Assembly (NCBI GenBank): GCA_045586565.1
Contig: JAZNAO010000006.1
Span: 1,457 to 65,456 of the forward strand
Direction: 5' to 3'
Length of the DNA: 64,000 bases
Source: Candidatus Enterousia sp.
GTDB taxonomy: Bacteria > Pseudomonadota > Alphaproteobacteria > Rs-D84
Shown one piece after another: positions 4,872 through 56,376 of this stretch. Under the pieces are notes generated by a model. It searched no databases. It was not told the origin of the DNA and worked only from the letters and a program-made list of their open reading frames with translations. The position numbers were made by a program, and so were the translations under genes. The stretch's first letter is position 1. Every line of letters begins with the position of its first letter.

Positions 4872-5603
4872 ATGACACGATATAAAGTAATCTTGGAATA
4901 TGATGGCACAGGCCTGATTGGGTGGCAAGAAAACCGCCATGGGCCGTCTGTGCAATCAATTATGAAAGATGCCATTGAATGTTTTTGTGGTGCGCGCGTT
5001 GATGTTGTGGCGGCGGGACGCACAGATGCCGGTGTGCATGCGGTTGCGATGACGGCGCACTTTGACATTGATGGTGAACATGATGCCGAAACCGTTATGC
5101 GGGCATTAAATTTTTATTTGGTAAATAAACCTGTGGCGGTGTTGGATTGTGAAATTGTGCCTGATGAATTTCATGCGCGATTTGATTGTGTCGCGCGCCA
5201 TTATAAATATGTTGTTTTAAATCGTGGGCCGTCACCGGTACTGCAACAAAATCGTGTTTATTGGGTGCCAAAGAAATTAGATGTTGATGCAATGCGTGCA
5301 GCCGCAGAAAAATTAATCGGCAATCATGATTTTACCAGTTTTCGTGCATCTGAATGCCAGGCGAAATCCCCAATTAAAACATTGGACAGAATAGAAATAA
5401 CCCAAAACGGCGACGAAATTATTTTTGAATTTTCTGCGCGTTCGTTCTTGCATCATATGGTGCGTAATATTGTTGGTACACTGATTGAAATTGGTCATGG
5501 TAAACCATATGATATTGATGAAGTGTTGGCGGCAAAGAATCGTGCGGCGGCGGGCCCAACGGCGCCGGCGTCTGGATTATATTTTATGCGCGCAGAATAT
5601 TAA
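4872..5603 (+). CDS. truA: tRNA pseudouridine(38-40) synthase TruA
   Basis: Catalytic motif AAGRTDAGVHA, with TruA-typical length and layout. Confidence 0.9.
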   Translation: MTRYKVILEYDGTGLIGWQENRHGPSVQSIMKDAIECFCGARVDVVAAGRTDAGVHAVAMTAHFDIDGEHDAETVMRALNFYLVNKPVAVLDCEIVPDEFHARFDCVARHYKYVVLNRGPSPVLQQNRVYWVPKKLDVDAMRAAAEKLIGNHDFTSFRASECQAKSPIKTLDRIEITQNGDEIIFEFSARSFLHHMVRNIVGTLIEIGHGKPYDIDEVLAAKNRAAAGPTAPASGLYFMRAEY

Positions 5604-14532: not shown

Positions 14533-15751
14533 CAAGATATTTTCAGATAATTGTCATGGTGCCAGTGTTCTGGAAGTGTTGCTGGCAATGGCGATTGTTG
14601 CCATGGCGACACCTTTTGTATATCGGCAAATTGCCCAAACAAATCATACGATTCATGATATTGCAATTGCGCGCAAGATTATGTCGACGCGTGAATCCGC
14701 ACTAAACTTTATCAGAATAAATCAAGATAAATGGCCTGATAATGCCCAGATTAAATTAGATGATTCTGAATTGGATATTATATCAACAGATGCAGCAGCG
14801 GGCTTTATTGATAAATATTCTGTAAACGGCGCAGTTATAACAGATGTATATTTGGCATTTGTTACAGCAGATACAGGATTGCGGACAAATCAAATTGCCC
14901 GTCATATTGGTTCTGATGCGGCGGTGGTCAGCGATGATGGTGTTGCGTATGGTAATACTTGGGCGGTTGCAGCGCCTGATTTTATTCCTGGTGATTTAAT
15001 ATATCGTATATCGCGTGACATTGCGGGCACAGATACATCAATATATCTGCATCGTGGAACATCTGGTGATGATGGTTTAAATATTATGCAACGTGATTTA
15101 GATATGTCGAATCATCACGTTTATAATGTTGCGACTTTGAATGGAAAATCTGTTCGTGCACGAAATGCAAATACTGTGTTTGTCGACACAACAGATGTTG
15201 TTACCAACAGTGTATATTTTTCATCGGGTGCGAATTTAGAGAATGATTCATCTGTATTTGGTAATGTTCGTGTAACTGGTGATATATCTGGGTTTCGTAA
15301 TATTTATGCAGATAATTTAAACGGTCGTGGATATACGACCACAGGGCGCATTGTAACAGACCGCGCCACGATTATAGATACTATAAATGTTGCGAATGAC
15401 TTTGTGTTAAAATCTGATTCTACACGCACGGTCAGCGCATTTACAGGTATTTCGGCCAGTTCTGTTTTGACACCATACATATCTGCCGAAGAGATGATAT
15501 TTTATGATAATTTTGGATTGACTGTATCTGGTGAATTGCTGATGTCAACCTCAACACCATTAAAGTTGGGCAGTTGGTCATTCCCATCAACAAAGCCGCC
15601 TGTGTTTAAGTCTTTTAATGTGTCACGGGCAACACGTCCGTCAATGCCGTCGCGTAATGAATTTGATGCAGTAACCCGTCGTGGGTGGCAGTCAACAGAT
15701 ACACTAACCCCACCGGTCTTTCAACAAACATATATATCAACGATAAATTAA
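14510..15751 (+). CDS. Large pilin-like protein 2 (413 aa)
   Basis: GTG start region overlaps the upstream gene. N-terminus ...CHG|ASVLEVLLAMAIVAMATPFVYRQ with Glu at +5. Contains YLHRG...DLDMSNHHVYN. The exact start is uncertain. Confidence 0.55.
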   Translation: MAVTVLNNKIFSDNCHGASVLEVLLAMAIVAMATPFVYRQIAQTNHTIHDIAIARKIMSTRESALNFIRINQDKWPDNAQIKLDDSELDIISTDAAAGFIDKYSVNGAVITDVYLAFVTADTGLRTNQIARHIGSDAAVVSDDGVAYGNTWAVAAPDFIPGDLIYRISRDIAGTDTSIYLHRGTSGDDGLNIMQRDLDMSNHHVYNVATLNGKSVRARNANTVFVDTTDVVTNSVYFSSGANLENDSSVFGNVRVTGDISGFRNIYADNLNGRGYTTTGRIVTDRATIIDTINVANDFVLKSDSTRTVSAFTGISASSVLTPYISAEEMIFYDNFGLTVSGELLMSTSTPLKLGSWSFPSTKPPVFKSFNVSRATRPSMPSRNEFDAVTRRGWQSTDTLTPPVFQQTYISTIN

Positions 15752-15752
15752 A

Positions 15753-17069
15753 ATGACAAAACGATACGGAATTTTTTCAAAATACAATCAATCGCGTGGC
15801 GGCATGTTGATTGAATTACTGCTTAGTGTGGCATTGGCATCTGTGATAATACCATTCATTTTCCAGTATCAACAGAACGCGGTAACGCGTGCGCAAAATA
15901 TTGCGATTACAGAACAAATGTCGGATATTCAATCTGCATTGGAAAGATATATAATTGCCAATCGCGAAGATTTATTAAAAACTGTGGGTCGCACTATTAC
16001 GCGCATATCTATGTCTGATTTGGTGCCATATGGTGTCCCAGATTCTGTATTGACCGCCGGCGATGAATTGTTTCAACTGCGCATCTTAAAATCGTCAGAT
16101 TATGGTGACCAGTCTACATTACAGGGAATCGTTGTGCGAAACTCAGAAGATATATCCCCATTGCGAACACGTGAAATTGTGAATCTGTCTGGGGGCAGTA
16201 TGGGTTTTATTGATGACACTCATGCGTATGGTACATTTGGTACATGGCATACAGATACAGTTGACATGGGCATTGATATGGATAACGCGATTATTGAAAC
16301 GACACCTGTGAATCGTGACAACGCGTTGTATTTGTGGCGCATACCATCTGATGATGCGTCAGACTCGCGCATGATGACGGCGTTAAACCTGGGTGGGCAT
16401 GATATATTAAATTCATCGTTTGTAAATGCGAATCATATTGAATTTTCAGAAATGTTGTCTGCACCTGCGATTGCGACGGGCGATATTATCTTTCAAAACA
16501 GAACAACGATAGATTGGCCATTGGATGCATCCAACGCCAGTGTCGCGGGTATGTTATCTTCGGATGCCAAGAATATGGAAATAACCAATTCTTTGACGAT
16601 TGGTGACGTTGCAAAATTATCATCGTTGACGGCATCAAATTTATGGGTTGGCAATTTAACGTTGGGTGGTTTATCTTTGCACGGTGATGTAGAAGTCGCG
16701 ACCTTGGCCATAAATCAGACACTGGATATGACTGCCGGTCGTATCGAAGCAATGTTTGTATCTGTTGGTTTTGCAGGTTCTATGACGCCGCGTCTGGTTG
16801 TTTACGACAGAATCGAAGATTCAACGAATTCTGGATACTATTGGGATTTGAAATCAGAAATGGCAAGCTTTGCGGACGCAACGTTGGTTGAATTAAATCG
16901 TATGGCAACCTTGGCGTCATATTACGAAGGTGATGCGTCGACTGAATCTGGCCAGATTTTTGGTGCGGTATCTGCGAATAAAAATGCGACTGTATCTGAT
17001 TACATGAACGCGATAAATGAAATTCAAACGCGTGTTCGTGCCAAATATCGTCAGTTGAATTTGCAATAA
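15753..17069 (+). CDS. Large pilin-like protein 3 (438 aa)
   Basis: N-terminus ...SRG|GMLIELLLSVALASVIIPFIFQYQ with Glu at +5. Contains YLWR...LNLGGHDILN. Starts 1 nt after the upstream stop. Confidence 0.55.
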   Translation: MTKRYGIFSKYNQSRGGMLIELLLSVALASVIIPFIFQYQQNAVTRAQNIAITEQMSDIQSALERYIIANREDLLKTVGRTITRISMSDLVPYGVPDSVLTAGDELFQLRILKSSDYGDQSTLQGIVVRNSEDISPLRTREIVNLSGGSMGFIDDTHAYGTFGTWHTDTVDMGIDMDNAIIETTPVNRDNALYLWRIPSDDASDSRMMTALNLGGHDILNSSFVNANHIEFSEMLSAPAIATGDIIFQNRTTIDWPLDASNASVAGMLSSDAKNMEITNSLTIGDVAKLSSLTASNLWVGNLTLGGLSLHGDVEVATLAINQTLDMTAGRIEAMFVSVGFAGSMTPRLVVYDRIEDSTNSGYYWDLKSEMASFADATLVELNRMATLASYYEGDASTESGQIFGAVSANKNATVSDYMNAINEIQTRVRAKYRQLNLQ

Positions 17070-19117: not shown

Positions 19118-22100
19118 ATGTCATTTCTCAAAAATACAGTAAGTTTATTGGCGGTTTTCTGCGTTGTTCCGGCGGCTTTTGGTGCCACGGCGCGCCCCAG
19201 TGTTTTAAACACTGCGACGGCGGTTTCGGCAACTGGTGCGGTTCGTCGTGTGGCGATGCCAACGATGACATCGTATATCACTGGCTCGGCGGGTGGTGTT
19301 ACAAACAACAATAATGGCAACTCTGGTTCCAGCAACTTATTAGACAGCATTGAATGCATCGATGCATACACCGAATGTATCAAATCCGAAGATGTGTGCG
19401 GCGAAGATTTGTCAGAATGCACAACAAACGTATTGTTCCATGGCAAAATGCCCCAGTGTGTAAGCACCCTGGCCCAATGTGAACCGGATGGGGTTGATGC
19501 ATTATTTGGCACAAAGAATGTAACCGATTTGTCGTTCTATGATTCAAATAATTCTGCGGAATATGATGCCGAAGATGGTGAGGTTATTCGTTACACATAC
19601 CCAACAGACGGCAGTGTTCTGGGGCAAATGATTATATCTGCGGCGATTGAAAATCAGTATGATACACAAACATGCGTGAAACGTTATATGTCATGCTTGA
19701 ATAAAGACAGTGTTTGTGGTGCAGACTTTGAATTATGTACCGACGAACGTGAATTTAAAAAGCAGGCATTGTTCTGTGATTCAACCCTGGCCCGTTGCCA
19801 GGCAGACGGTGTTCGCGAATTATTCGGGGTTTCAAAATGGTCGCCACATAAAATGGGTGCGGATGGCAAAATCGAAGGTTCTTCCCGTGTTGGTGTGGCA
19901 ATCAAAGACGGTGCAGATTTGGCGGCGTTGAACGCGGTTTCTACCTGTTACAAGGTTGTTGAACAGTGTTTCTTGGGCGCATGTTCGGCCAATCCGTTGC
20001 GTTGTTTGGCGGGGTCGAATTTATCGACATTGACGGCGGCAAATGATATTGCGGCGGACGGTATCACAATCACATTGTCAAATGACAGTGCGCCATCAAC
20101 CCCAACAGACGTAAATCGTTATCTGCGCACATCGTGCCAGGATACAATTGGTGCAAATAAATTCTGTCACATGACATTCTTGGGCAAAAATCCAAGTAAG
20201 AAAGACTTGGCGGATGTAGATGTCCAATCAGAAGTCTTTGACGATGCAATCAGCGAACGTAAAAAATACGTTGAATCAAAAATCCAAGATTTGATGACAC
20301 AGTTCGATAAACGTGCCAAGGATAAATGTGTTGAAACAATTCGTTCATGCGCAATGCGTTCCTGTGGCGAAGGTGTCGGTTCTGTATGTTATTCATCTGT
20401 ATATGGCGCGAATGGCGGAAATACAATTGCGGGTCCGGCCACACGTCCAGATATCAAAACGGCATGTGAATCTGTTGTAAATACCGATGTGAATTGCCAA
20501 TATGCATATTCAACTGTTATAGATAATGGTGTGTATTCATACAATTACATCCAAAATTCTGTATTTGATACATTATTCCCAGAATATGCTGCCGACAAAA
20601 CAAACAATGATCCAATCGGTGTAATCGGGTCGTTAAATTCGTCCCTGTCGACCAGTTATAATGCCGCTGCTCTGGCGCAAATGAAGAAGCAATGTCAATC
20701 TGTCGCGACCAGCTGTGTTAAATCAATGTGTGGCACGGATTACCAGAATTGCTATCGCAATCGAACAGATATCTTGTCTGATTTGACCAATACGGATAAT
20801 GCAAAGTTTGATACGTCAATGAACAAGGTTGGTGGTGTTCTGGATTATACAATTGTATTGGGATTGTGCATGAACACGGTTAAAAACGCCGATGTATGTG
20901 ATGAACACCTGAAAATCCAAAAGGCCAAATTAGATTTGGAAAAGACAACGGAAAATGTATGGGGAACACAATCGTCTGTCCGTGATGGCTGGATTGATGC
21001 TGGTGGTGCCAAGAAGTTTGAAGAAGGGATGGTTCATTCCAAAGACGAAAATGGTGCCGATTTATGCACAAATGCTGCAGGGGACCAAGGTGTTTGCTAT
21101 GACGTTGATGCCAATGGTGATGTTTTTAATAAACCTGTGATGATATCTGCAGACCTGTATAAAACGAACCAGGCCACAACATCATTATTCCGTGAATTGT
21201 TGGTTGATTTAGAATACGAAGCCCAGGCGAAGTATAACGCCAAATTGACGAAACAACAGAATATGTGTCTGGCGGCAAATTCTGGTGGTGTTGTTGGCGC
21301 TGGCGATATGGGTTCAACATTCATGTGGGCAAAATTGAAAAGGGGCAAGGTTCCGGCCGATTATTCAATGAATGGTTTAACCAGTGACCAAATTGTCCCA
21401 AGTAATGAATTGTATGGTTCATTCTGCCGTGTGCGTGTGACACTGCAATCCACAGACCCAACCGTATCTGAATGGTTAAACAGTACCGAAGGTCAGAAAT
21501 ATGCAACGCGTTATTTTGCGGCGGGTGATGCATTTACATGCGGTTCATGGATACCTGTTGGCGATGAAGGAACATGCCATGACGATACCGCCGCGGGCAT
21601 CAGAAGATGCAAAGGTGGCTCAGGATTACGTGGCCTGGCGCAAAAGGTTGGCGAAGCCACATATACATACGACAAACAGAAATCCGACACAATTCTGCAA
21701 ACAATGTTGCCAGTGGTTGGATTGCTGGGTGGTGGTATTGGTGGTGCATATCTGGGCGCCGGCATCGAAGACGGTTCTGTATTCGGCGGTCTGACGGGTA
21801 AAAAGAGCACAAAATCAGACAGCAAGACAGCAAAGACTGCAAACGATAGATGTTCGAATGCCATCGATATGGCCAAAACAAAATTAGCGGAAGCAAATCC
21901 TAGCCTGGAAAGTGTAAGAAGTTTAGCCAAAACAGCGGCTGATGAATTAGAAGACATGGACAAGGTTGTGTACAAAAACCTGGAGTATTGGCCAGATGGT
22001 ATGACAACTACTGTTACTGAAACTATTTCTAAAGGAGAAGGGGAGCAAACTAAATATTATTGTGGCGGGACAGAAGTCAATACGAAAGTACCAGCACGGT

Positions 22101-22432
22101 GCGTTGGTGATAAGTTATTGGCCGATGCAAGAACAGAAATCACACCCATTTTGAATAGACTAGAAGGTTATTGTGAATCTGCGGTCGAAGACGAAGATGC
22201 CAATGCTAAAAAGAAAAAGGGTGCCGCCGCCGCGGGGGCTGTGACAACCGGTGTGATCAGCAGTGTTCTGACATGGGGCGTCACACGCAGCATCATTGAT
22301 GCACAACGCACCAAAGAACAACAGGCCGCAATTGATGAATTCATGGATTCATTGGGTTCAAAAATCAATTGTGTTGTCGGTGGGGATTCCATTGCGGTAT
22401 ATGGCGACACATTGGTCACCAGTATGGAATAA
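19118..22432 (+). CDS. Large Cys-rich secreted/membrane-anchored protein (1104 aa), unknown family
   Basis: RBS GGAG..AAGGGG and signal peptide ...VVPAAFG|A. Contains duplicated Cys modules, a Gly-rich hydrophobic segment (LPVVGLLGGGIGGAYLGAGI) and a second C-terminal hydrophobic segment. Followed by a strong terminator. Confidence 0.7.
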   Translation: MSFLKNTVSLLAVFCVVPAAFGATARPSVLNTATAVSATGAVRRVAMPTMTSYITGSAGGVTNNNNGNSGSSNLLDSIECIDAYTECIKSEDVCGEDLSECTTNVLFHGKMPQCVSTLAQCEPDGVDALFGTKNVTDLSFYDSNNSAEYDAEDGEVIRYTYPTDGSVLGQMIISAAIENQYDTQTCVKRYMSCLNKDSVCGADFELCTDEREFKKQALFCDSTLARCQADGVRELFGVSKWSPHKMGADGKIEGSSRVGVAIKDGADLAALNAVSTCYKVVEQCFLGACSANPLRCLAGSNLSTLTAANDIAADGITITLSNDSAPSTPTDVNRYLRTSCQDTIGANKFCHMTFLGKNPSKKDLADVDVQSEVFDDAISERKKYVESKIQDLMTQFDKRAKDKCVETIRSCAMRSCGEGVGSVCYSSVYGANGGNTIAGPATRPDIKTACESVVNTDVNCQYAYSTVIDNGVYSYNYIQNSVFDTLFPEYAADKTNNDPIGVIGSLNSSLSTSYNAAALAQMKKQCQSVATSCVKSMCGTDYQNCYRNRTDILSDLTNTDNAKFDTSMNKVGGVLDYTIVLGLCMNTVKNADVCDEHLKIQKAKLDLEKTTENVWGTQSSVRDGWIDAGGAKKFEEGMVHSKDENGADLCTNAAGDQGVCYDVDANGDVFNKPVMISADLYKTNQATTSLFRELLVDLEYEAQAKYNAKLTKQQNMCLAANSGGVVGAGDMGSTFMWAKLKRGKVPADYSMNGLTSDQIVPSNELYGSFCRVRVTLQSTDPTVSEWLNSTEGQKYATRYFAAGDAFTCGSWIPVGDEGTCHDDTAAGIRRCKGGSGLRGLAQKVGEATYTYDKQKSDTILQTMLPVVGLLGGGIGGAYLGAGIEDGSVFGGLTGKKSTKSDSKTAKTANDRCSNAIDMAKTKLAEANPSLESVRSLAKTAADELEDMDKVVYKNLEYWPDGMTTTVTETISKGEGEQTKYYCGGTEVNTKVPARCVGDKLLADARTEITPILNRLEGYCESAVEDEDANAKKKKGAAAAGAVTTGVISSVLTWGVTRSIIDAQRTKEQQAAIDEFMDSLGSKINCVVGGDSIAVYGDTLVTSME

Positions 22433-25591: not shown

Positions 25592-25617
25592 AAAAACGGC
25601 ATGACGCCGTTTTTTTA
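25590..25617. terminator. Bidirectional terminator between uvrD and the VirB6-like operon
   Basis: A-run, then ACGGC-ATGAC-GCCGT hairpin, then T-run. Confidence 0.65.
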
Positions 25618-26910
25618 TTTGCGTGATTCTTTGATAATTTTATACCATTCTTTGACAGACTTTTTTGCATCGCCCCATAATCTGGTCACGTCTGATTTTA
25701 ATGATGTGCCCATTGAAGAATCTATTGCGCCACCTATGTCTGTTGCAATTTGTGATGCATGACTGGCCAGATACCATGTCAACGCCATCACAAACATAGA
25801 TGTCCATATATTTGGATTATCAAATTCTGGCACCAACCCAGGATTTGTTAAATCCATAACGCCCGATAATAATGCTGTGCAAATTGCAATAACAATTGAC
25901 AATGTGACAAAGTGCAGGGCTGCATTGATAAAACGCATAATTTGTGCCTGTAAAGATTCTGTGGAAAATAACTTTACAAAACCATTATAAATATCACCAA
26001 CAATTCCCTTGTATGATGTTTGGCCCACGCACTCTGCAATTGCAGTAAAAGGCAACATTATAATCCCCAAGAATAAATCTGCAATTACACCAAATGCAAC
26101 AAATGCAAATTTCCATGCCAGATATATAAACCCACCAATCATTGCGCCACCACACAGGAATGAAAACATACTGCGTCCGATACCGTATGCCATCCATTTC
26201 CATCCAACCGCCACCGCCGTATAACAAAATCCGGATAATCGTGTTGGAATACACATAATGTTTGCTGCGGCTTCTGGGGGCAATAAATTAGATTCAGATA
26301 TATGTTCTGTGGCATACATATGAATCGCTGTGCATGTGTCTGGGATTTGTGCGCCTGCAACACTGGCTACTGCATTTAAAATTAAATCAGATATCAGTGA
26401 TGCAACGCTTAAAATTGGACTCATCACCATCATAAATGTTTCTGCCGGTCCGACATTTAACACCACCACCCACATTGCGGTTATTGCGCCTTTTTTCAGC
26501 ATTGATTTTATTGTGTCTTTAGTGTCGGCTTTGCCGGTGATTATATTATATGCCTCTAACCCCATCCAGAATGCATACATCAATATGATAAATATGATTG
26601 TAAACCGAACCAATGACGAATCCAGTATATGCCCGATATGTGAAAACGCATTCATAAATGCCAGACCGATTTTCGCTTCTATTGGGACAAACCCCACATC
26701 AAAATTTTGTATTGTATTTCCGTGAAATTTTTCAAAATCCCCAGACAGTTGCCCTATAAACAATTCTCGGTTTGCTTCCGTGGTCCATACCCCATTATCA
26801 CCGATATCTGGTAACGGTACATTTGTTTCGCCAAATGCCGGCACCGCCATAACCGTTGCGATTGCAACAAGTGCTAAATACCTACAAAGATGTTTAAATA
26901 CCTTTATCAT
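25615..26910 (-). CDS. TrbL/VirB6-like polytopic membrane protein, paralogue 4 (431 aa)
   Basis: Signal peptide and multiple TMs. The layout (hydrophobic helix - charged loop - helix ...) is shared with the four neighbours and resembles VirB6. 4-nt overlap with the upstream gene. Confidence 0.5.
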   Translation of the reverse strand: MIKVFKHLCRYLALVAIATVMAVPAFGETNVPLPDIGDNGVWTTEANRELFIGQLSGDFEKFHGNTIQNFDVGFVPIEAKIGLAFMNAFSHIGHILDSSLVRFTIIFIILMYAFWMGLEAYNIITGKADTKDTIKSMLKKGAITAMWVVVLNVGPAETFMMVMSPILSVASLISDLILNAVASVAGAQIPDTCTAIHMYATEHISESNLLPPEAAANIMCIPTRLSGFCYTAVAVGWKWMAYGIGRSMFSFLCGGAMIGGFIYLAWKFAFVAFGVIADLFLGIIMLPFTAIAECVGQTSYKGIVGDIYNGFVKLFSTESLQAQIMRFINAALHFVTLSIVIAICTALLSGVMDLTNPGLVPEFDNPNIWTSMFVMALTWYLASHASQIATDIGGAIDSSMGTSLKSDVTRLWGDAKKSVKEWYKIIKESRK

Positions 26911-28352
26911 TTATTTGTCACCACATCTGCAATTGTATCTGTAATTTTTAATGGCGCACGCCCAGTTGTTTTTATCAAATCACCTGTCCATTTACCAAAA
27001 TCAAACAATTCTGGACTGTCTTTGCCCAACATCTTGTCAATCTTTGGGCTGATTGCATAAAAGTACAAGAAGAACAAACATGCCATCATCAACAAGAAAT
27101 CCCATCCATCATCCATAAAATTAAATGCGTTTGGATACTTTCTTTCAACTTCTGCCTTGCGTGCGGTAAAGCAATTTTTAAATTTATCTTTGTCCATTTC
27201 GCCATCTACCAAAGCAACCTGTTCACATGTTGTAAACACATTCATTACAGATAATGTTTGTGCGTCTGGATTTTCGGCATGCATACCCATCATTGGTGGT
27301 AATATTGCCGTATATCCATCATTTGGTCCTGGGAAAAACGCATCTGCGGTGTATGATACCGTCGCGTATATCACCAATGTTTTCAATGTAATGGCGATAA
27401 TTCTTACTGCTGATGTAACCAGCATATTTATTGCATTCCCCAATAACCCATTTGCCTTGGCCCAGACGCCTTCGAACGCATATGATGCCAATAACAGTGG
27501 CAAAAATATAACCAAGAATACCAGTTTAAATACCACAGATAATATTTGAAAAAACAAATCAAAACCAATCAGCAAGAACATCAATACCAATGCCAATCCT
27601 GCGACCCACGTAAACGCACCGCCACCCATACCCATCCAAGAATAATTCATCAGTGAAAATCCGCCTGCGGCACCTGCCAGCATTACACTGTTTATATTTC
27701 CAACAACGCACATAAATGGTTGCAGTATTGGATTTAAAATATCATTTTCGTTTTCAGAATATTTATCATTTCTCAAATTGCATTGTGCAGAATCACTGAT
27801 ACCTGTGGCGGCCATTGATAATTCTGCCCCAAGATACATAACTGGTGTAATTGTTAGTTGTGATACTGTCTTTAAAGCGCCTGTGCCGCCCATCCCCAGC
27901 ATTCCCATTACTGCACCAACAATCAGCACACGTGCACCCTGTTTCCAGATTTTGTCGACCAGCGCATTTATTTCCAATTTCTTTTCTGTGTCGTCTAACT
28001 TCATGGCTTCTTTTGCAGAATTTAACATATGCTGAACAATACTGATGACAATAAACAACCCAAATCCCAACACCATCAATATCCAAATATTGTTTACCAT
28101 TAAATTCCAGAATTTGTCGGCTGCATTCCCGATGACTGTGAACAAATCAGAAATATATCTGCACATAAAACATCCGTTGACGTTTGAAATATTCCCGTCA
28201 GTTGCCCCCACGGCCGTTAAAAAGTTATCCAAACTGGTATACGTAATGGATGTACCGCCCAAAGATGACGACAAATACCATATCCCCAGCCCTAATGCGG
28301 CGATGATAAAGAATGCTTTGATGGCCATAACAATCAATTTTGCCTTTAACAT
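26907..28352 (-). CDS. TrbL/VirB6-like polytopic membrane protein, paralogue 3 (481 aa)
   Basis: Polytopic, with the N-proximal motif CFMCRYISDLF shared with two paralogues. Translationally coupled to its neighbours. Confidence 0.5.
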   Translation of the reverse strand: MLKAKLIVMAIKAFFIIAALGLGIWYLSSSLGGTSITYTSLDNFLTAVGATDGNISNVNGCFMCRYISDLFTVIGNAADKFWNLMVNNIWILMVLGFGLFIVISIVQHMLNSAKEAMKLDDTEKKLEINALVDKIWKQGARVLIVGAVMGMLGMGGTGALKTVSQLTITPVMYLGAELSMAATGISDSAQCNLRNDKYSENENDILNPILQPFMCVVGNINSVMLAGAAGGFSLMNYSWMGMGGGAFTWVAGLALVLMFLLIGFDLFFQILSVVFKLVFLVIFLPLLLASYAFEGVWAKANGLLGNAINMLVTSAVRIIAITLKTLVIYATVSYTADAFFPGPNDGYTAILPPMMGMHAENPDAQTLSVMNVFTTCEQVALVDGEMDKDKFKNCFTARKAEVERKYPNAFNFMDDGWDFLLMMACLFFLYFYAISPKIDKMLGKDSPELFDFGKWTGDLIKTTGRAPLKITDTIADVVTNK

Positions 28353-29542
28353 TACTTACCTTCCTTGTCGTCGTCTTTTTTTAGCACTATTTTTGCGGTA
28401 TTTGTAACCGCGCCCACCGCATTCTTGGTCAGCCCCATAATTGCATCTGCGACCTGTTCGCCATATTCTGTTTTTTCTGCGACACCAAATGCGTCCAGTA
28501 TCATTTTTGTAATCGCTTTGGATTGGTCGTAAATATAATTTAAAACGTAAATTAAAATACTGCAACTCATCAACGTCATGGATTCCAAATTTTCTGTATT
28601 CAAATCTGCGTTGTATAATTCACCTGTTGTAATTGCATTCATCAAATCGTTTACAGATACATCCGATGCACTAAAGAACTTGGCGATTACAACCATAATA
28701 ATCGTATACGTTATAACGATTGATCCCAAAGACACAATCGAATTTACCAAATTCTTTATTTGATTTATCCCGACCCCAGATCCCAATTTTTTTATCCATT
28801 CTGGTACATGTTCTGCGCCAGTGAACGCCATTGTCATCAATGATAGTGGGAAAAAGAATGCAAAGAACGCCATTGCAACAATTGCGTCTGCAAATCTGCA
28901 ACAATATCGGAAAAATAATTTTATAAATCCCCATGACAGATAAAATCCAATAAAGAACAACATGATATGCTTTAACAAACTGCCAATTCCGGTCAAAGCC
29001 TTCCATGAAAAAGCGTTATCTACGACCGCAATCCCCAGTTTTATATATGATTGGAATTGTGTGATTGTCGTCTGCATCAACAATAATATTTTATTACGCA
29101 GTTCTGGCCTAAAAAAACTATCATCTGTCATTTCTTTTGGGGTATATGGAACTTTTTCTTCGACCTGAACTGTATCCAGTTGGATTATGTTTTGTGTATA
29201 AACCGTTGTAACAGATGCAATGGGTTCGAATATTAGTGTAGATACCATTCGTGGTAATGTGACACCCGCCCCCAGCAGTCCGACAACAACAATCGAATTT
29301 AAAAATACTTTTTGTATGGATTTCTTAAAGAATAGGTCGTCCATCCCTTTTTGCATATTTTTCATCCATGCATTTGACACATACAATGCAAATAATGCAA
29401 TCAACAACATCAGACATAATTTTGCAAAATTATCATATATATACGCGGCTGCCAAAGACACAATCTGAAACAGACGGTCAAATATTGGACAACTCCAACA
29501 TTGGATTGAATTGTCTATCAAAGATGATGTCCATTCGTTCAT
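28352..29542 (-). CDS. TrbL/VirB6-like polytopic membrane protein, paralogue 2 (396 aa)
   Basis: N-terminus ...CWSCPIFDRLFQIV, followed by a TM bundle. Overlaps both neighbours. Confidence 0.5.
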   Translation of the reverse strand: MNEWTSSLIDNSIQCWSCPIFDRLFQIVSLAAAYIYDNFAKLCLMLLIALFALYVSNAWMKNMQKGMDDLFFKKSIQKVFLNSIVVVGLLGAGVTLPRMVSTLIFEPIASVTTVYTQNIIQLDTVQVEEKVPYTPKEMTDDSFFRPELRNKILLLMQTTITQFQSYIKLGIAVVDNAFSWKALTGIGSLLKHIMLFFIGFYLSWGFIKLFFRYCCRFADAIVAMAFFAFFFPLSLMTMAFTGAEHVPEWIKKLGSGVGINQIKNLVNSIVSLGSIVITYTIIMVVIAKFFSASDVSVNDLMNAITTGELYNADLNTENLESMTLMSCSILIYVLNYIYDQSKAITKMILDAFGVAEKTEYGEQVADAIMGLTKNAVGAVTNTAKIVLKKDDDKEGK

Positions 29543-30801
29543 TTCTTTTTAAACCATCCCAATGCGCTATTAAATGCGCTGGTTGTTTGTTTGATACCTT
29601 TCCACATTGTTGTGGCGTCACCATTGACCTGTCTATACAGTTTATCCATACCGCCACCGATATAATTTTCCAGTTGCTTTTGTGTCATCTGATAGATTTT
29701 ATACATCAAAAAGAATGTCAATATTGCCGACATCCATGTGACAGAATGTGTTCCAAATCCAATTGCATTTACAACTTCTGGTGTGGGCAGATTGCTGTAT
29801 GCGCTGCCCCCGGCGGCAGAAACAAATACCGAAGAATTCCATCGGAACAGTGCTTTGATTACCGCCAAATTGATGCACAGTATAAACGCACATGCAATCA
29901 TAGTGATAATCAATTGTTGTAACGCCTTGGTAATACCGCTGAATGCGGGCCAAACATCGAACCATTTATCACTGGACTTGGTCACGTATGTCAGCACATA
30001 GAACGGATATAAAATCAGTTGTACACCGAAATTAAATATTCCCTGTATAATCAGCATTGCCATAAACAGGTTACTGCCGATAAATGTGATTATTAGAATA
30101 ATCCCGGTCAATACATTCATTAAATCTTCGCCACCATGTGGAATCAATGTCAACAGCCCGCGCAATCCACGTGTCAAGAAATCAAATCCGCGTTTTATAA
30201 TCTGGTTGTTTGCGTGTGATAAATCAGATATTGGTTGCACTAAAAATTCGCATGATTCCGGATTCAACCACGCTTTTTCTGTAATGCTGGTTGGGCAATC
30301 TATTTTTTGTGCGTTGGTTCCTGTTTCGTTGATTGTCTGTGTTATTTCATGAGTATATACCGACCCCAGTTTTAAAAAAGGATTTACCAACCACTGCGTC
30401 AAGAACATCGGTGACAGTTGTAATAAAAATACAATTGCGATAAATGCGCGAAATCCAGGTTTTAGAACTTTTGTTGCGATGTCCATTGGACCGGCTTTGC
30501 CATCAGCGATTTCACCGCCCCCCGATATGTTAAAGAACGCCAGCACTTCTTTCGGGGCAAACATTTTTAACAGTCCGATTACAATAGTTATAACGAAAAA
30601 TAATATAACCAATCCTTGAATAATTCCGTTGCCCACAAAAAATTCATATCCGCCCGTGGCAACCATCATCAGCGCATCCAATATCATCGGCACAAAAGGT
30701 GCCAAATTTAATGCGTCAACAATATCTGCATGTGCGGCCCCTGGTGCGCAGAAAACCGCGACAAAACATAAGGCTGATAATATTTTTTTTAGTATATTCA
30801 T
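29539..30801 (-). CDS. TrbL/VirB6-like polytopic membrane protein, paralogue 1 (420 aa)
   Basis: Signal peptide ...CAPGAAHA|D and a polytopic body. First gene of the minus-strand four-gene operon. Confidence 0.5.
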   Translation of the reverse strand: MNILKKILSALCFVAVFCAPGAAHADIVDALNLAPFVPMILDALMMVATGGYEFFVGNGIIQGLVILFFVITIVIGLLKMFAPKEVLAFFNISGGGEIADGKAGPMDIATKVLKPGFRAFIAIVFLLQLSPMFLTQWLVNPFLKLGSVYTHEITQTINETGTNAQKIDCPTSITEKAWLNPESCEFLVQPISDLSHANNQIIKRGFDFLTRGLRGLLTLIPHGGEDLMNVLTGIILIITFIGSNLFMAMLIIQGIFNFGVQLILYPFYVLTYVTKSSDKWFDVWPAFSGITKALQQLIITMIACAFILCINLAVIKALFRWNSSVFVSAAGGSAYSNLPTPEVVNAIGFGTHSVTWMSAILTFFLMYKIYQMTQKQLENYIGGGMDKLYRQVNGDATTMWKGIKQTTSAFNSALGWFKKK

Positions 30802-34061: not shown

Positions 34062-34090
34062 TTGATTCAACTTTTCAAAAATGATAAAAT
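34062..34090 (+). promoter_or_regulatory. Sigma70-type promoter of Cys-rich gene A
   Basis: TTGATT, a 17-nt spacer, then TAAAAT. The same geometry and -10 box recur at 53299 and 55128. Confidence 0.6.
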
Positions 34091-34358
34091 ACATTTGTCG
34101 GTGGGATTTTTCACCGATGGGGTGTGGAAACCCGTTATCTAAGCGTCTATGCACGATTGCATAACGCGCCAATGGCGTGTTTTTTGTGCAGTGTATGGAT
34201 GAAAATTTTTTTCTCCTGATCTTATGTGGTCAGGAGGGCTGCGAATATATTGAATAAGCACACAATTCTTAGATATTGTTTCCAACCTCCTGGCCACCTA
34301 TCTTTTATGGTGGTTTTTGTTTAATTTGCGTATGCAGAACGAAAGGGAGGAAAGTAAT
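34091..34358 (+). promoter_or_regulatory. Conserved structured leader (attenuator-like), copy A
   Basis: Hairpins at 34098-34117 and 34120-34133, and hairpin plus T-run at 34164-34185. Alternative segments: S1 34213-34221, S2 34226-34238, S3 34286-34298, S4 plus T5 34309-34318. Conserved in copies B and C. Confidence 0.6.
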
Positions 34359-35102
34359 ATGCAAAAATTTTTAAAACTAACCGGCGTATCAGTTTTGGCA
34401 ATCGTTGCCGCAACGGGCGCCAATGCCGCGGGATACACCTGTGAAGAATTGATTGAATACACAGCATGTAATGATGGGTGGTATTTAAACGATGGTGATT
34501 GTATAGAAAGCACAACATGTCCATCGGGCAGTTATTTACGTCCGTTTTGTTCAGTGAGCGATTGTGGTGTGAGTTATGATTCTGAGACCGAAGAATATAC
34601 TTGTTGTGATGGTGATTATGTTGCAAACCTGGAATGCATACAATGCCCATCTGTTGGTCTGACTGACAAAGACGGCAAAGTGGTGTCGGTTAAATCACAG
34701 CCTGGCTCAATGGGTGTTGGTTCGTGCTATATTGACCCGAATGCATATTTCAAGGATAGCACGGGGACATATCATTATAAGTCCAATTGTTCTGTGCGTT
34801 TCTGGGAAACATCCCCAGACACAGAAGAAGAATGTACCAGTCTTGGTTTTGAATGGGTATATACAAGTGGTGAATCAGATTCTTATTATGTTTGTGCGTT
34901 GAACATGCGGATTAGTGAACAGTTGGGTTTAATAAAGACAGAAGAAGAATGTAACGCGGCAGCTGAAAAAATATATGGCTTGGTATGGAAAGATGAAGGA
35001 GATTATTATTATTCCAGATGCGAAACCATAAACTACGAAGAGAGTTACTTTATTTTTAGGGATGAATGGTATGTTTTTGGTGATCCTATTTCTCACTCCT
35101 AA
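34359..35102 (+). CDS. Secreted Cys-rich protein, family member A (247 aa)
   Basis: RBS GGGAGGAAAG and signal peptide ...ATGANA|AGYTCEELIEYTAC. Shares the N-terminal module and the CP..GLTDKDG...SC.ID...F.D..G.Y.YK..C module with the protein at 55429. Confidence 0.75.
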   Translation: MQKFLKLTGVSVLAIVAATGANAAGYTCEELIEYTACNDGWYLNDGDCIESTTCPSGSYLRPFCSVSDCGVSYDSETEEYTCCDGDYVANLECIQCPSVGLTDKDGKVVSVKSQPGSMGVGSCYIDPNAYFKDSTGTYHYKSNCSVRFWETSPDTEEECTSLGFEWVYTSGESDSYYVCALNMRISEQLGLIKTEEECNAAAEKIYGLVWKDEGDYYYSRCETINYEESYFIFRDEWYVFGDPISHS

Positions 35103-53298: not shown

Positions 53299-53327
53299 TT
53301 GACCTAAAATTTTAATATTGATAAAAT
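53299..53327 (+). promoter_or_regulatory. Sigma70-type promoter of Cys-rich gene B
   Basis: TTGACC, a 17-nt spacer, then TAAAAT. Confidence 0.6.
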
Positions 53328-53567
53328 CCTTTTGTCGGTGAGATTTTTCACCGATGGGGTGTAACGACCCGTGCGATAGCGTCTGTGCGATATTTGCGCC
53401 CAGATGAAATTACTCCTGATCTATTCGTGGTCAGGAGGGCTTGTGAATAATGCGTCCGCGCAAAATCAACAGCACAATTCTATCGATTGTCGTTAACCTC
53501 CTGACCACCTGACTTATAAAACGGTGGTTTTTATTTGATAAAACGCAAAGGAAAGGGAGAGTTTTAT
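53328..53567 (+). promoter_or_regulatory. Conserved structured leader, copy B (lacks the internal terminator-like hairpin)
   Basis: H1 and H2 are conserved. Segments: S1 53413-53421, S2 53427-53439, S3 53497-53509, S4 plus T5 53523-53532. Confidence 0.55.
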
Positions 53568-55040
53568 ATGAAAAAGTTTTTTGGTTACACTGTATCAATA
53601 ATGGCAATTTTTGTGGCAAATAATGCATCCGCGGCAGACGGATATACATGTGAAACCAGTCGTGTGTTTACATCGTGTGGTGCAGGTTGGTATTTACAGG
53701 AATCTGTTGCGGGCTCTGGCGAAGGTACGTGTTATGAATGTCCAACCAACTTTAAGAGTGGGGCTGCTGGGATTGTTGGCAAAGATAACTGTGTGGGAAA
53801 TATTGCCGCGGGATATTATTATGACAAGGAAAATGAGACGCGAAAAACATGTCCACAAGGTGCGTCGTATTTTTGCCCAGGGGTATCGAATATTACATAT
53901 GGTAATGCCAGTCGTTCGACAACAACAACCCCGTGTTATGACCCGTCTAATCCAAATGCGATGACGGCAGGATTAAAGAATGTAATTGGTTATAGTAATA
54001 TAACGCGCCTAGAATTGGGTTCATATGGTATTCCAGAAGGTGTTCAGGTAATTACATGGAAACCTGTTGTGGTAAATAGTGGCGGGGCCAGTTCGTATGA
54101 ACATTGTGCCTTTGATTGGACTCAATCAACAAATAATTATAAAATACAGATAATCCCACAAAACAGCCTTACAGGGTCTGGGGTGGCCACTTTAAACATA
54201 ACATCATGCAGCAGTGGACAATTATCGTCGGTTCGAAATGTTAAATTTAATGAGATTGATATTACAACTGGTGGCAGTCCCTTGTTCTCAACAGGATGTG
54301 CCGGCTGTGGCGAAGGTAAGTATTTAAAGTCTGGTGCAACGGAGTGCAGTGCTTGTAACATTCATGATGCGTTGGGCTTGGATACCAGTGTGACAGCAAT
54401 ATGGCAATCTGGTCTGGCTGAAAGCACTGTGGGCTCTTGGGTTTGTCCGTATCGCTTTGAAACGCTTCCTGTTGAAAATGGTGTTGCCACGGGTATATCG
54501 TGCTCGATGACCGATGTCGCCAATGGTACATACAGTTGTCGCTTGTCCCTGGATATAGGACAACTAGGGTGCGATGCGGGTTATATATTGCAAAATGCGG
54601 ACATGACATCCGAAACATTGATTAACTGTGGTGGCCAGGATAATTCGTATGGACAGTCTGTAAATGCTGATACTGATCTTGCAATTGGGCTAGAAATTTT
54701 GACACCGTCAAACTTAAAATGCGTGCCGACACGTATGGGGTGCTATCAGCCAAACGGTCAGGATGAATTTGCAGAAATTACAAACGCTGCGGACTTGATT
54801 ACAGCATTGACTGGCAAGCCTTGTGGCGATGGTAATTATTGTGACAAATCTGCATCTGCGGAACAGACTGCGTGTCCTGCGGTTAAATTGTTCATGCGCG
54901 AAGATGGCAGTGCGGTCAACATGATGTCGGCCGATTATGCAGACGATGCGGCAGACTGTTATGTTCCAGCCAACCCAGATATCTTGTACAAGGACGGAAA
55001 TGGAAACCTGTTCTATCTGGAAAGCAAGTGTGGCTACTAA
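53568..55040 (+). CDS. Secreted Cys-rich protein, family member B (490 aa)
   Basis: RBS AAAGGGAGAG and signal peptide ...NNASA|ADGYTCE. Repeated C-x2-C-P / G-x-Y patterns, and a C-terminal module shared with A and C. Confidence 0.75.
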   Translation: MKKFFGYTVSIMAIFVANNASAADGYTCETSRVFTSCGAGWYLQESVAGSGEGTCYECPTNFKSGAAGIVGKDNCVGNIAAGYYYDKENETRKTCPQGASYFCPGVSNITYGNASRSTTTTPCYDPSNPNAMTAGLKNVIGYSNITRLELGSYGIPEGVQVITWKPVVVNSGGASSYEHCAFDWTQSTNNYKIQIIPQNSLTGSGVATLNITSCSSGQLSSVRNVKFNEIDITTGGSPLFSTGCAGCGEGKYLKSGATECSACNIHDALGLDTSVTAIWQSGLAESTVGSWVCPYRFETLPVENGVATGISCSMTDVANGTYSCRLSLDIGQLGCDAGYILQNADMTSETLINCGGQDNSYGQSVNADTDLAIGLEILTPSNLKCVPTRMGCYQPNGQDEFAEITNAADLITALTGKPCGDGNYCDKSASAEQTACPAVKLFMREDGSAVNMMSADYADDAADCYVPANPDILYKDGNGNLFYLESKCGY

Positions 55041-55067
55041 AAAATCCCCCTTTTGGGGGATTTTTTT
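55040..55067 (+). terminator. Intrinsic terminator after Cys-rich gene B
   Basis: ATCCCCC-TTTT-GGGGGAT hairpin followed by T7. Confidence 0.8.
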
Positions 55068-55127
55068 GAGATACGAGATATGAGACATGTGACAGGAATA
55101 TTTATCAATGTGTCCTTATTTTATTTA

Positions 55128-55156
55128 TTGACGTAAATTCTTAAAACTGATAAAAT
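55128..55156 (+). promoter_or_regulatory. Sigma70-type promoter of Cys-rich gene C
   Basis: TTGACG, a 17-nt spacer, then TAAAAT. Confidence 0.6.
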
Positions 55157-55428
55157 TCTTTTGTCGATGGGATTTTTCATCGATGGGGTGTCAAGACCCG
55201 TTTCATTGGCGTTCATGCACGATTGCATAACACGCCATGTGGCGTATTTTTTATGCGATATGTGTATGGGTGATAAATTACTCCTGACCCGTGGTCAGGA
55301 GGGCTGTGAATATATTGAATAAGCACACAATTCCAATGATTGTCTTGAACCTCCTGGCCACCTTTTGTGAAAAACGGTGGTTTTTTGTTTATTTTGGCAA
55401 ACAAAACAAAGGAAAAGGAGAGTTTGTT
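55157..55428 (+). promoter_or_regulatory. Conserved structured leader, copy C
   Basis: H1 carries a compensatory change (TCGATG/CATCGA). Hairpin plus T-run at 55232-55252. Segments: S1 55281-55289, S2 55291-55303, S3 55350-55362, S4 plus T6 55376-55386. Confidence 0.6.
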
Positions 55429-56376
55429 ATGAAAAAAATTTTATTGAGCGGTGCGTCAATCCTGGCAATTATCGCCACCACAAACGCAAATGCCGCCGGA
55501 TATACCTGTGAAGAATTGATTGAATATACATCGTGTAATACGGGATATTATCTAAATGATGGTGATTGTATCCCGGGCAATACATGCCCTGCCGGGAATT
55601 ATTTACAAGGTGTATGTCCAGATGGGTATGAGTATTCTGACACTTGGAGCGTTGAGAATGGTGCAATTGTTTGGGTTAACAATATTACACAAGCAGAGTG
55701 TGAAAATGAAGGAGACTACTGCACTTGGTACGGCGCAGGGTGCCTTATTACAGATGCGGATCCATTTATGGTGGACGATGGATTTATTTCGGCGACAGGA
55801 TATGAATGCACTGCGTGCGCGGCTGGTTCATATCAACCATCTGCGGGTCAATATGAATGTATAACATGTCCGGCGGGGGCATATTGCGGAACGACCGGAT
55901 TGTCCGCTGTATCTGGCCAGTGTGCCAAGGGGACTTATTCGCATGGTGGTGCTGTATCATGTGCCGCATGTCCGGCGACGGGACTGACCGATAAAGATGG
56001 TGCGGTTGTTGTTGCAACAACGCCGACGGCTGGTGCAACGACGATCTCGTCGTGTGTAATTGATGATACGGTTTATTTCAGGGATACCAAAGGTGTATAT
56101 CGTTACAAACAGGATTGTGTATTGCTTGGTGATATAACAGGCACTAACGCTGCAGAGTGTGAATGGGTGGCAGAAATAACCGGTGAAGATTGGAATATGT
56201 TTAATGATGCTTGTAGTTTTAATACCGAAGGAACAACGATTTTGGCACCAGCGACAGAATCTGAATGCCTTGATTTAGGTGGTGATTGGGACACTTATTT
56301 TGAAGAAGGAAAATGCCATTGTGATGGTTGGGTGTGGTATATTAAAGAAGGAAAATTGATGTGTGGGACAGTATAA
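55429..56376 (+). CDS. Secreted Cys-rich protein, family member C (315 aa)
   Basis: RBS AAAGGAGAG and signal peptide ...TTNANA|AGYTCEELIEYTSC. Contains the ephrin-receptor-like/GCC2-GCC3-like stretch CTACAAGSYQPSAGQYECITCPAGAYC...CAKGTY...CAACP. Confidence 0.78.
   Translation: MKKILLSGASILAIIATTNANAAGYTCEELIEYTSCNTGYYLNDGDCIPGNTCPAGNYLQGVCPDGYEYSDTWSVENGAIVWVNNITQAECENEGDYCTWYGAGCLITDADPFMVDDGFISATGYECTACAAGSYQPSAGQYECITCPAGAYCGTTGLSAVSGQCAKGTYSHGGAVSCAACPATGLTDKDGAVVVATTPTAGATTISSCVIDDTVYFRDTKGVYRYKQDCVLLGDITGTNAAECEWVAEITGEDWNMFNDACSFNTEGTTILAPATESECLDLGGDWDTYFEEGKCHCDGWVWYIKEGKLMCGTV

Follow-up and report, generated by a model that had tools for sequence, protein, structure and literature searches.

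The closest described relatives of the RNA element analysed here are the sRNA-Xcc1 small RNAs (sRNAs; Rfam RF02221). An sRNA-Xcc1 element lies upstream of symE in Xanthomonas integron cassettes (10.1101/2025.06.18.660453) and upstream of an ORF6N gene in APSE (10.1101/2020.03.17.996009); Xylella carries seven copies, among which five recur at a spacing of ∼385 nt, and a different Xylella strain has one beside C4 and isrK RNAs (PMC12189769). Chen et al. 2011, which PMC12189769 cites, calls the element a trans-acting sRNA in its title. The closest described proteins are those with Ephrin_rec_like (PF07699) repeats, namely the Cys-rich domain of Eph receptors, ELAPOR1, the Chlamydomonas mastigoneme protein Mst1 and giant protist surface proteins. 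We compare these systems with three genes, A, B and C, and with the leader RNA that precedes each of them, in a 64,000-nt stretch (the window) of contig JAZNAO010000006.1 from the gut alphaproteobacterium Candidatus Enterousia sp. (order Rs-D84).

We put at roughly 65% the probability that A, B and C belong to a large lineage-specific family of exported Cys-rich proteins, in which each gene is its own transcription unit behind a leader that switches between two folds. Each unit would consist of a sigma-70-type extended −10 promoter, a 210–230-nt leader RNA and one gene. The encoded protein would carry a signal peptide, a motif of about 20 residues (AGYTCEELIEYTSCNxGYYL), β-hairpin repeats like those of ephrin receptors and TNFRs, a shared module and fast-diverging segments. 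Of this proposal, the part that is newest and has the firmest support is the two-state leader RNA with its relationship to sRNA-Xcc1; the function of the proteins is put forward as a hypothesis.

The ∼300 nt upstream of A, B and C align at 75% mean column identity, which is above that of the coding regions. The leader comprises a promoter, TTGAC-N17-TG-TAAAAT, kept upstream of A, B, C and the family gene on contig L002 (L numbers designate contigs in the collections searched), followed by a structured RNA of 210–230 nt. This RNA starts with a 5′ hairpin, P0. P1 is a long-range helix in which GGGGUGU and two segments, V1 and V2, pair with V2′, V1′ and AACCUCC ∼150–180 nt downstream. P2 is a helix whose tip usually carries T1, a canonical terminator present in 25 of the 29 leaders aligned. 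P3 is formed by CUCCUGAYC paired to GGUCAGGAG, and P4 is a hairpin with an AU-rich loop. A second terminator, T2, lies 30–60 nt ahead of the start codon. The features of the three units, in which the switch strands are designated X′a, X and X′b, are as follows.

34062 to 34090, forward strand: promoter of gene A (TTGATT, 17-nt spacer, TG-extended TAAAAT).
34097 to 34324, forward strand: leader RNA of A (nhmmer E = 9e-47; minimum free energy −89.3 kcal/mol, z −7.7).
34097 to 34144, forward strand: 5′ parts of the A leader, with the P0 hairpin at 34097–34118, the P1 5′ strand GGGGUGU and V1 (GGAAAC) at 34119–34131, and V2 (UAUCUAAG) at 34137–34144.
34163 to 34187, forward strand: T1 of the A leader, an internal terminator located by terminator scan.
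∼34213 to 34295, forward strand: switch strands of the A leader, with X′a (CUCCUGAUC) at ∼34213–34221, X (GGUCAGGAG) at 34228–34236 and X′b at 34287–34295.
34268 to ∼34318, forward strand: 3′ parts of the A leader, with V2′ at 34268–34275, V1′ and AACCUCC at 34278–34290, and T2 at ∼34292–34318.
34359 to 35102, forward strand: gene A, encoding a 247-residue exported Cys-rich protein with a signal peptide, a AGYTCEELIEYTAC motif and a CPSVGLTDKDG..CYID..FKDSTGTYHYKSNC module; no Pfam match.
53299 to 53327, forward strand: promoter of gene B (TTGACC, 17-nt spacer, TG-extended TAAAAT).
53334 to 53542, forward strand: leader RNA of B (nhmmer E = 5e-39), a variant without T1 and with an enlarged P4 loop; V1 AACGAC pairs with GUCGUU and V2 CGAUAG with CUAUCG.
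53568 to 55040, forward strand: gene B, encoding a 490-residue exported Cys-rich protein, a divergent member with the N-terminal motif DGYTCETSRVFTSC and the module at residues 419–488, its extreme C-terminus.
55045 to 55066, both strands: bidirectional intrinsic terminator 3′ of gene B, with the hairpin TCCCCCTTTTGGGGG and then a T-run.
55128 to 55156, forward strand: promoter of gene C (TTGACG, 17-nt spacer, TG-extended TAAAAT).
55163 to 55391, forward strand: leader RNA of C (nhmmer E = 1.5e-47; minimum free energy −88 kcal/mol, z −7.0).
55232 to 55366, forward strand: parts of the C leader, with T1 at 55232–55252, the sRNA-Xcc1-like antiterminator domain at 55294–55366, and V1′ with AACCUCCUGGCC at 55339–55359, then T2.
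55429 to 56376, forward strand: gene C, encoding a 315-residue exported Cys-rich protein with Ephrin_rec_like repeats at about residues 119–185 (nt 55783–55983) and the module at residues 178–231.

The terminator at 55045–55066 indicates that B and C are two separate transcription units.

The structure of the leader is backed by covariation among 29 distinct copies. RNAalifold predicted 39 pairs for this set, 17 of them compensatory. When the structure was specified, 95.5% of cells were paired, compared to 83.6% in shuffles (none of 500 shuffles reached the observed value), and 22 pairs had changed on both sides; slid controls gave 34–55%. V1 is fully paired (6/6) in all 29 copies despite occurring as 11 distinct sequences, and V2 forms at least six contiguous pairs in 27 of the 29 copies by our parse, with 21 distinct sequences; one of the two exceptions, L019, looks on inspection like a parsing error. 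The T2 helix contains three compensatory pairs and is 98.5% paired. Single-sequence folds of the A and C leaders recover the whole architecture. These two leaders are 85% identical outside V1 and V2 and 29% identical inside them, for which diversifying selection need not be invoked, since neutral saturation with compensation accounts for the 29%. Two other readings of the element were rejected. A leader peptide (an open reading frame beginning GUG AAU AUA UUG, which shares the frame of C and is predicted as a gene by some programs) is discounted because indels and compensatory stem changes (UGUG/CACA, UCGCG/CGCGA, CGUA/UACG) point to a hairpin rather than to coding sequence, and an inverted repeat or invertible promoter acting at the DNA level is discounted given the conserved G-U pairs and the strand-specific structure.

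One strand of the leader can take part in either of two helices. Two strands are complementary to GGUCAGGAGG: CUCCUGAYC on its upstream side and CCUCCUGRCC on its downstream side, the latter sharing positions with both P1 (3′ strand) and T2 (5′ strand). In the nascent RNA, the second pairing can be forced at a cost of only 2.5–5.3 kcal/mol, the B leader requiring 2.5 kcal/mol, and this pairing also forms a hairpin, ACAAU/AUUGU, with V2′ in its loop. In the leaders on L057 and L060, X′a, X and X′b have all changed in concert, to CUCCAACC, GGUUGGAG and CUCCAACC, and the overall fold is retained; this three-strand change supports both P3 and the antiterminator helix. The leader thus has a terminator hairpin with a U-run between promoter and start codon, and a predicted antiterminator that excludes it. 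In the first fold, P1 and P3 would form, GRCCACC would be left free and T2 would terminate transcription just before the ribosome-binding site, so that the gene is off. In the second fold, GGUCAGGAGG would pair with CCUCCUGRCC and close an sRNA-Xcc1-like domain, with a closing helix and two hairpins; the 5′ half of T2 would be sequestered, allowing read-through and turning the gene on. The choice between folds could be made by a ligand, a protein, a trans RNA or the kinetics of transcription. Terminator geometry and covariation suggest that the leader controls termination, and the energetics suggest that its default state is off. The leader resembles riboswitches and attenuators of the terminator/antiterminator kind in having mutually exclusive folds and a multi-helix junction closed by a covarying P1. 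No known riboswitch family, C4 or isrK matched it at threshold in Rfam; at gathering score the only Rfam match in the whole window was a tRNA, and the C leader, scanned by E-value over 351 nt, returned only noise. The literature yielded nothing relevant on the leader sequence.

A relationship to sRNA-Xcc1 emerges when the 3′ domain of the leader is searched alone, and is not seen when it is searched within an 8.6-kb batch. Searched in this way, the 3′ domain aligns over the whole RF02221 model, positions 1–87, with scores of 27.6 bits for C and 32.2 bits for A (34228–34303). It also has the architecture of that family: a 9–10-bp closing helix, which is backed by the coordinated change in L057 and L060, then two internal hairpins, followed by ACC and a U-run. 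Two metagenome matches that had first been discarded as due to chance proved to be genuine distant relatives: L029, with 35.9 bits against RF02221, and L046, with 35.5 bits. They lie in prophage or P4-like elements that also bear C4, isrK and int-alpA RNAs, have the full two-part architecture, and covary in V2 (AAAGG/CCUUU versus ACCAG/CUGGU). Searching by BLAST from L029 brought up phage Stx2a_F451, in which a bona fide sRNA-Xcc1 (64.3 bits) lies between antirepressor genes and is preceded by a promoter, by segments complementary to its hairpin-2 loop and pre-closing strand, and by a T1-like terminator. Based on the RF02221 alignment, L029 and L046, Stx2a_F451 and the published loci upstream of genes, we regard the leader of Enterousia as a diverged and AT-rich relative of the sRNA-Xcc1 class that falls below the threshold for Rfam membership. 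The leader differs from sRNA-Xcc1 in being AT-rich and chromosomal, in its extra hairpin strand X′a, and in its many copies per small genome; it precedes genes for secreted proteins, while sRNA-Xcc1 loci have toxins and antirepressors downstream, and the literature describes sRNA-Xcc1 as an sRNA that acts in trans and not as a component of a cis-acting switch. Elements of the sRNA-Xcc1 type with a previously unrecognised 5′ partner region occur at L029 4133–4325 (reverse strand), L046 4747–4935 (reverse strand) and L061 1486–1712 (forward strand). This comparison suggests a larger cis-acting switch, of which RF02221 would describe just one half. Separately, the 5′ domain of the leader, from the P1 5′ strand to T1, gives weak isrK (RF01394) matches at 55185–55252 and at L032 1034–1119 (10.3 and 16 bits).

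The shared leader that the first-pass annotation had proposed for these genes is confirmed by its distribution, for it stands upstream of all 11 family genes that we examined (A, B and C in the window, three on L056, and one each on L002, L057, L058, L059 and L060). Pattern scans found nine further copies in genome collections and ∼20 in metagenome collections; chance matches inside unrelated genes made up 20 of 40 metagenome hits and three of 12 genome hits, with L029 and L046 as two more metagenome hits that had been rejected. A leader profile (nhmmer) gave 42 matches in the DNA searched, and leader-bearing genome contigs are titled Candidatus Enterousia sp. or Alphaproteobacteria bacterium. 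The leader always lies on the same strand as a signal-peptide open reading frame and 15–170 nt upstream of it, and the reading frame has no separate promoter. Within the window, there are no stand-alone half-leaders or extra leader copies, and the other secreted proteins have no leader.

On other contigs of the Rs-D84 type, the leader precedes unrelated signal-peptide proteins, most of which are Cys-rich and almost none of which match Pfam. Some of these share the CP...CYI...D..G.Y...C module (L051, 1.4e-7), others have few or no cysteines (L019, L020, L050), and among the few non-Cys proteins is a small membrane protein judged VirB2/TrbC-like from its sequence alone. The small leader-linked proteins on L009, L019 and L020 have in common A-S-x-x-Y-V after the signal peptide and a ..GTYNVSG..VPTPP.. 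segment, and appear to constitute another leader-controlled family, with few or no cysteines. On L013, two tandem leaders (5123–5340 and 6142–6352, forward strand) each stand before a ∼230-residue Cys-rich paralogue with a possible lipobox (..YAYAGC, ..VYARC) at the end of its signal peptide; this contig, binned as Muribaculaceae, is probably a mis-binned Rs-D84 contig. A weak partial match to the 3′ domain alone, at L057 11232–11343 (reverse strand; E ∼1e-5), lies upstream of a 60-residue reading frame that looks on inspection like a helix-turn-helix regulator, and may be a degenerate copy or a chance match.

The relatives in phage and P4-like immunity regions, beside C4 and isrK and upstream of antirepressors, raise the possibility of a self-specific RNA–RNA regulator of the immunity type, comparable to phage P1 c4 and P4 CI. 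According to this explanation, a released sRNA containing P0, V1, V2 and T1 would pair, by means of its copy-specific V1 and V2, with the nascent leader of its own gene and force termination, resulting in gene-by-gene autoregulation. Like those phage RNAs, the leader has short copy-specific complementary segments: V1 and V2 are randomised between paralogues in an otherwise well conserved leader, and T1 would release exactly the fragment that bears them. The P4 immunity RNA has a seqA-seqB-seqC arrangement, and the order X′a-X-X′b resembles it. However, chance-level identity in V1 and V2 is expected anyway from saturated neutral drift with compensation (synonymous divergence, dS, ∼1.4), T1 is missing in B, L001, L057 and L060, and no processing sites are known. 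Moreover, every transcript already carries the 5′ strand in cis, so a trans copy would add little. The leader does not reach the gathering score of the phage c4/isrK antisense RNAs (CL00128, RF01394). We therefore consider this explanation unlikely.

It is less likely again that the upstream element consists of one or two independent genes for trans-acting sRNAs (a T1-terminated 5′ sRNA, an sRNA-Xcc1-like RNA, or both) rather than of an attenuator acting in cis. The frequency of canonical T1 terminators, the weak isrK-like matches on the 5′ domain, and the name given to sRNA-Xcc1 in the title cited in PMC12189769 would all be in keeping with such genes. They would leave unexplained why the element always lies on the same strand just ahead of a signal-peptide reading frame that has no promoter of its own, and why all 11 family genes have it. 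In addition, T2 overlaps the switch strand, V1 and V2 have their partners within one transcript and differ between nearly all copies, and sRNA-Xcc1 itself immediately precedes a gene in Xanthomonas, APSE and Stx phage.

The proteins behind the leaders share their ends and little else. The reading frames of A, B and C are intact, all on the forward strand, and each was predicted by the first-pass annotation to have a signal peptide ending in A-x-A and a shared N-terminal motif, which is what we find. The N-termini of A and C are 69% identical over the first 64 residues (pairwise E = 2e-26), those of B and C 49% identical over 45 residues (E = 9e-8), and B matches A with E = 9e-9; a profile of this region from 67 homologues detects A at 2.6e-31 and B at 3.5e-14. 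The common N-terminus reads AGYTCE..YTSC..GYYL and directly follows the cleavage sites MKK..ILAIIATTNANA|AGY in C, ..VAATGANA|AGY in A and ..FVANNASA|ADGY in B. By inspection, all three have the basic N-region, hydrophobic core and A-x-A site expected of Sec substrates cleaved by signal peptidase I, a pattern kept across ∼130 homologues, and thus A, B and C are likely to be exported by Sec and cleaved in this way. The second shared part, CP...C(Y/V)(I/V)...D..G.Y...C, is 33% identical between A and C (pairwise E = 4e-15); in B it is weak in the pairwise comparison (E = 1e-4), and a profile of 67 homologues finds it in A at 2.8e-21 and in B, at residues 419–488, at 2.3e-5. This module had been described as C-terminal; it is indeed common to the three proteins, but in A and C it is followed by ∼85–100 further residues. 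Outside the shared ends, A, B and C diverge from each other. The mature proteins contain 24 (C), 26 (B) and 16 (A) cysteines, and the Cys-rich strings quoted in the first-pass annotation are present, that at 55798–55974 being residues 124–182 of C.

The conservation of the N-terminal motif is due to selection on the peptide. Between A and C the motif has a nonsynonymous divergence (dN) of 0.097 and a dS of 0.88, and the proportion of synonymous differences (pS) over the whole N-terminus is 0.64, which argues for purifying selection on the peptide and not for recent recombination. Gene conversion is likewise rejected as its source, since synonymous sites there are near saturation. The resulting dN/dS of ∼0.11–0.14 indicates strong purifying selection.

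The first-pass annotation assigned the three proteins to a eukaryote-like class of Cys-rich repeats. This assignment holds for C, which passes Ephrin_rec_like (PF07699) over two stretches with 45.8 bits (cut-off 23.1; E = 5.3e-12); A and B fall below PF07699 and are tied to C through the family's own N-terminal and module profiles. In Pfam, searched up to E = 10, none of the three proteins gave the matches also foreseen, to Furin-like, TNFR_c6 and VSP, and NCBIfam gave nothing for any of them. C has sub-threshold matches to TNFR_ELAPOR1_6th (23.1 bits; cut-off 33.2) and NCD3G. An AlphaFold2 model of C, based on 67 homologues, has a predicted local distance difference test score (pLDDT) of 83.7 and is confident except for the first ∼45 residues. 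Foldseek matched this model to Chlamydomonas Mst1, ELAPOR1, the Cys-rich domain of the calcium-sensing receptor (CaSR), Eph receptors, TNFR1 and DR6, and it superposes on the Cys-rich domains of EphB2 and EphA2, that of CaSR, and TNFRs. In the model, C has the disulfide-ladder β-hairpin fold of the Cys-rich domains of Eph receptors and TNFRs.

Sequence profiles lead to the same class. The family profile matches Mst1 at 4.9e-20 and has 10,269 matches among 1.84 billion representative proteins; the top matches are proteins of 2,000–8,000 residues in which only profile positions ∼110–180 are matched, dozens of times each, and those that are named are all eukaryotic (Chromosphaera, Intoshia, Cantina). 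The Pfam, fold and giant repeat-array matches together make the eukaryote-like label the right one for C. The likeness to PF07699 proteins consists of the two above-cut-off repeats of C and the superposition of its model. Unlike the eukaryotic proteins, A, B and C are short (250–490 residues), have only about two clear repeats and no transmembrane anchor or kinase, and start with a bacterial Sec signal peptide; their conserved N-terminal motif and their module are both unique. A literature search on bacterial Ephrin_rec_like proteins found nothing relevant.

The family extends far beyond the window, to which its description as three-membered is confined: a census gave 156 homologues of C at 90% clustering, all unnamed or ‘hypothetical’ and all from metagenome-assembled genomes (MAGs) or metagenome contigs of gut Alphaproteobacteria. 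At least 15 bear the locus tags of one single MAG, and many bear a precomputed PF07699 annotation. B has only two close relatives, at 57–60% identity. Nearly every member starts M.K.LKLTGVS.LAI.AA.NANA|AGYTCEELIEYTSCN.GYYL. Family proteins contain 5–8% Cys, with CxxC motifs, and the number of cysteines in the mature part is even in 127 of 135; the even counts and the fold class suggest that these cysteines form disulfide bonds. The mean identity of the homologues to C varies by region.

Residues 1–23, signal peptide: 65%.
Residues 24–44, N-terminal motif: 88%.
Residues 45–110, variable segment: 30%.
Residues 111–162, repeat region: 43%.
Residues 163–231, module: 51%.
Residues 232–315, C-terminal segment: 23%.

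With an N-terminus 88% identical and two other regions at only 23–30%, the suggestion that this is a variable family is well founded. Variant-specific surface proteins (VSPs) of Giardia and the Vlp/Vsp lipoproteins of Mycoplasma are similar in being multigene families of Cys/CxxC-rich proteins in gut-dwelling organisms or reduced genomes, and here too the leader, signal peptide and N-terminus are highly conserved and the body is divergent. Unlike these proteins, the family has no VSP Pfam match, C-terminal membrane anchor or lipobox, and we saw no simple-sequence phase-variation tracts or silent cassettes.

At 90% identity, the gyrA of the window clusters with MAGs named ‘Alphaproteobacteria bacterium’. 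Genomes of Ca. Enterousia are 0.75–1.0 Mb in size and lack the tricarboxylic acid cycle, respiration and amino-acid synthesis, and the organism has been proposed to be an obligate symbiont or parasite that takes metabolites from other cells (PMC12306168). An outer membrane is indicated by lpxD in the window and lptD/lptF at a related locus. The lifestyle of the lineage, the expansion of the family and the variable segments lead us to infer a role in contact with a partner or host. The conserved motif and the module would then be common parts for scaffolding or handling (export, assembly or attachment), the N-terminal motif possibly serving as a handling or targeting signal, and the divergent segments would be binding or antigenic surfaces for contact with the partner cell or host.

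Several observations weigh against this reading of the leader and proteins. The leaders do not reach the RF02221 gathering score of 53 bits, nor does L029 at 35.9 bits. Other than in L057 and L060, X′a, X and X′b are invariant, so that the antiterminator is supported by two variant copies and the Rfam consensus; the terminator fold is thermodynamically favoured, and four leaders have no T1. A and B have no PF07699 match even at E up to 10, and the model of B, built from three sequences, has a pLDDT of 35.5. No membrane anchor, lipobox, hydrophobic C-terminus or outer-membrane export signal is recognisable in A, B or C, and the proteins could thus remain periplasmic. Finally, disulfide formation is an assumption, and the Rs-D84 lineage is reported to be fermentative, without respiratory chains (PMC12306168).

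The last two points also bear on a different function, in which the proteins would be periplasmic or secreted thiol-rich handlers of metal or redox state, buffering zinc, iron or copper as reported for Giardia VSPs, and the leader a metal or redox riboswitch. Quinone-dependent disulfide formation is open to question in a host without respiratory chains (PMC12306168), the proteins combine 5–8% Cys and CxxC motifs with no detectable anchor, and the junction nucleotides of the leader are conserved in the manner of an aptamer. However, the Cys spacing and the fold match disulfide-stabilised TNFR/Eph modules, the Cys counts are even in nearly all members, and buffering would not explain dozens of divergent paralogues with hypervariable segments outside the cysteines. 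The leader, moreover, also precedes proteins with few or no cysteines (L019, L020, L050). We find this function improbable. As for the notion that the genes were acquired from a eukaryote and persist, now without function, as decaying remnants or as cassettes that are not expressed, for which the eukaryotic character of the repeat class could be cited, it is scarcely credible given intact reading frames with promoters, ribosome-binding sites and terminators, a dN/dS of ∼0.11–0.14, and more than 100 intact homologues retained in genomes of <1 Mb that show no pseudogene accumulation (PMC12306168).

Family genes are embedded among housekeeping genes. B and C are flanked by genes for an aminoacyl-tRNA synthetase and an acyl-ACP (acyl carrier protein) thioesterase on one side and by gyrA on the other, and A by an inositol-monophosphatase-family gene and fabZ/lpxD; on other contigs family genes are likewise scattered, singly or paired, among housekeeping genes. 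A scan of the window found no further signal-peptide Cys-rich reading frame of the A/B/C kind. A second, unrelated orphan Cys-rich exported protein is encoded at 19118–22432 (forward strand); it has 1104 residues, a signal peptide and 43 cysteines, and is without a leader, a Pfam or NCBIfam match, or a match to the family's N-terminal and module profiles. At 13174–17069 (forward strand), three adjoining paralogues of ∼410–450 residues have N-termini resembling class III prepilin signals (G|ASVLEVLL.., G|MLIELLL..), with just a weak GspI N-terminal match (E = 0.0075), for the one at 14510–15751; possibly they are giant pseudopilins belonging to a type II secretion or type IV pilus system, through which folded proteins might be exported. 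At 25615–30801 (reverse strand), four genes in a row encode membrane or secreted proteins of 396–481 residues that match nothing in Pfam or NCBIfam.

Bacteria with genomes of <1 Mb keep very few paralogues and regulators, and here a sizeable share of such a genome is given to an exported, eukaryote-like Cys-rich family: the 64-kb window alone has three copies of leader and gene, and a single MAG has at least 15 genes of the family. An extension that we hold to be a long shot is that the symbiont has domesticated an RNA immunity switch of the phage or integron type (sRNA-Xcc1 class) as a per-gene lock, with the V1 and V2 helices as a ‘barcode’, such that only one or a few Cys-rich surface proteins are transcribed at a time. 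If this were true, the lock would be a bacterial RNA-based counterpart of VSP switching in Giardia, and sRNA-Xcc1 elements generally would be halves of cis-acting switches and not free-standing sRNAs. As a structured RNA with two conserved folds, the leader is new and well supported. Given its link to sRNA-Xcc1, members of that RNA family, which is common in integrons, phages and pathogenicity islands, may be cis-regulatory too. The family proteins and their leaders are concrete targets for metatranscriptomics, antibodies and binding screens, and they point to the molecules by which an uncultured, probably partner-dependent gut lineage, Rs-D84/Ca. Enterousia, touches its environment.

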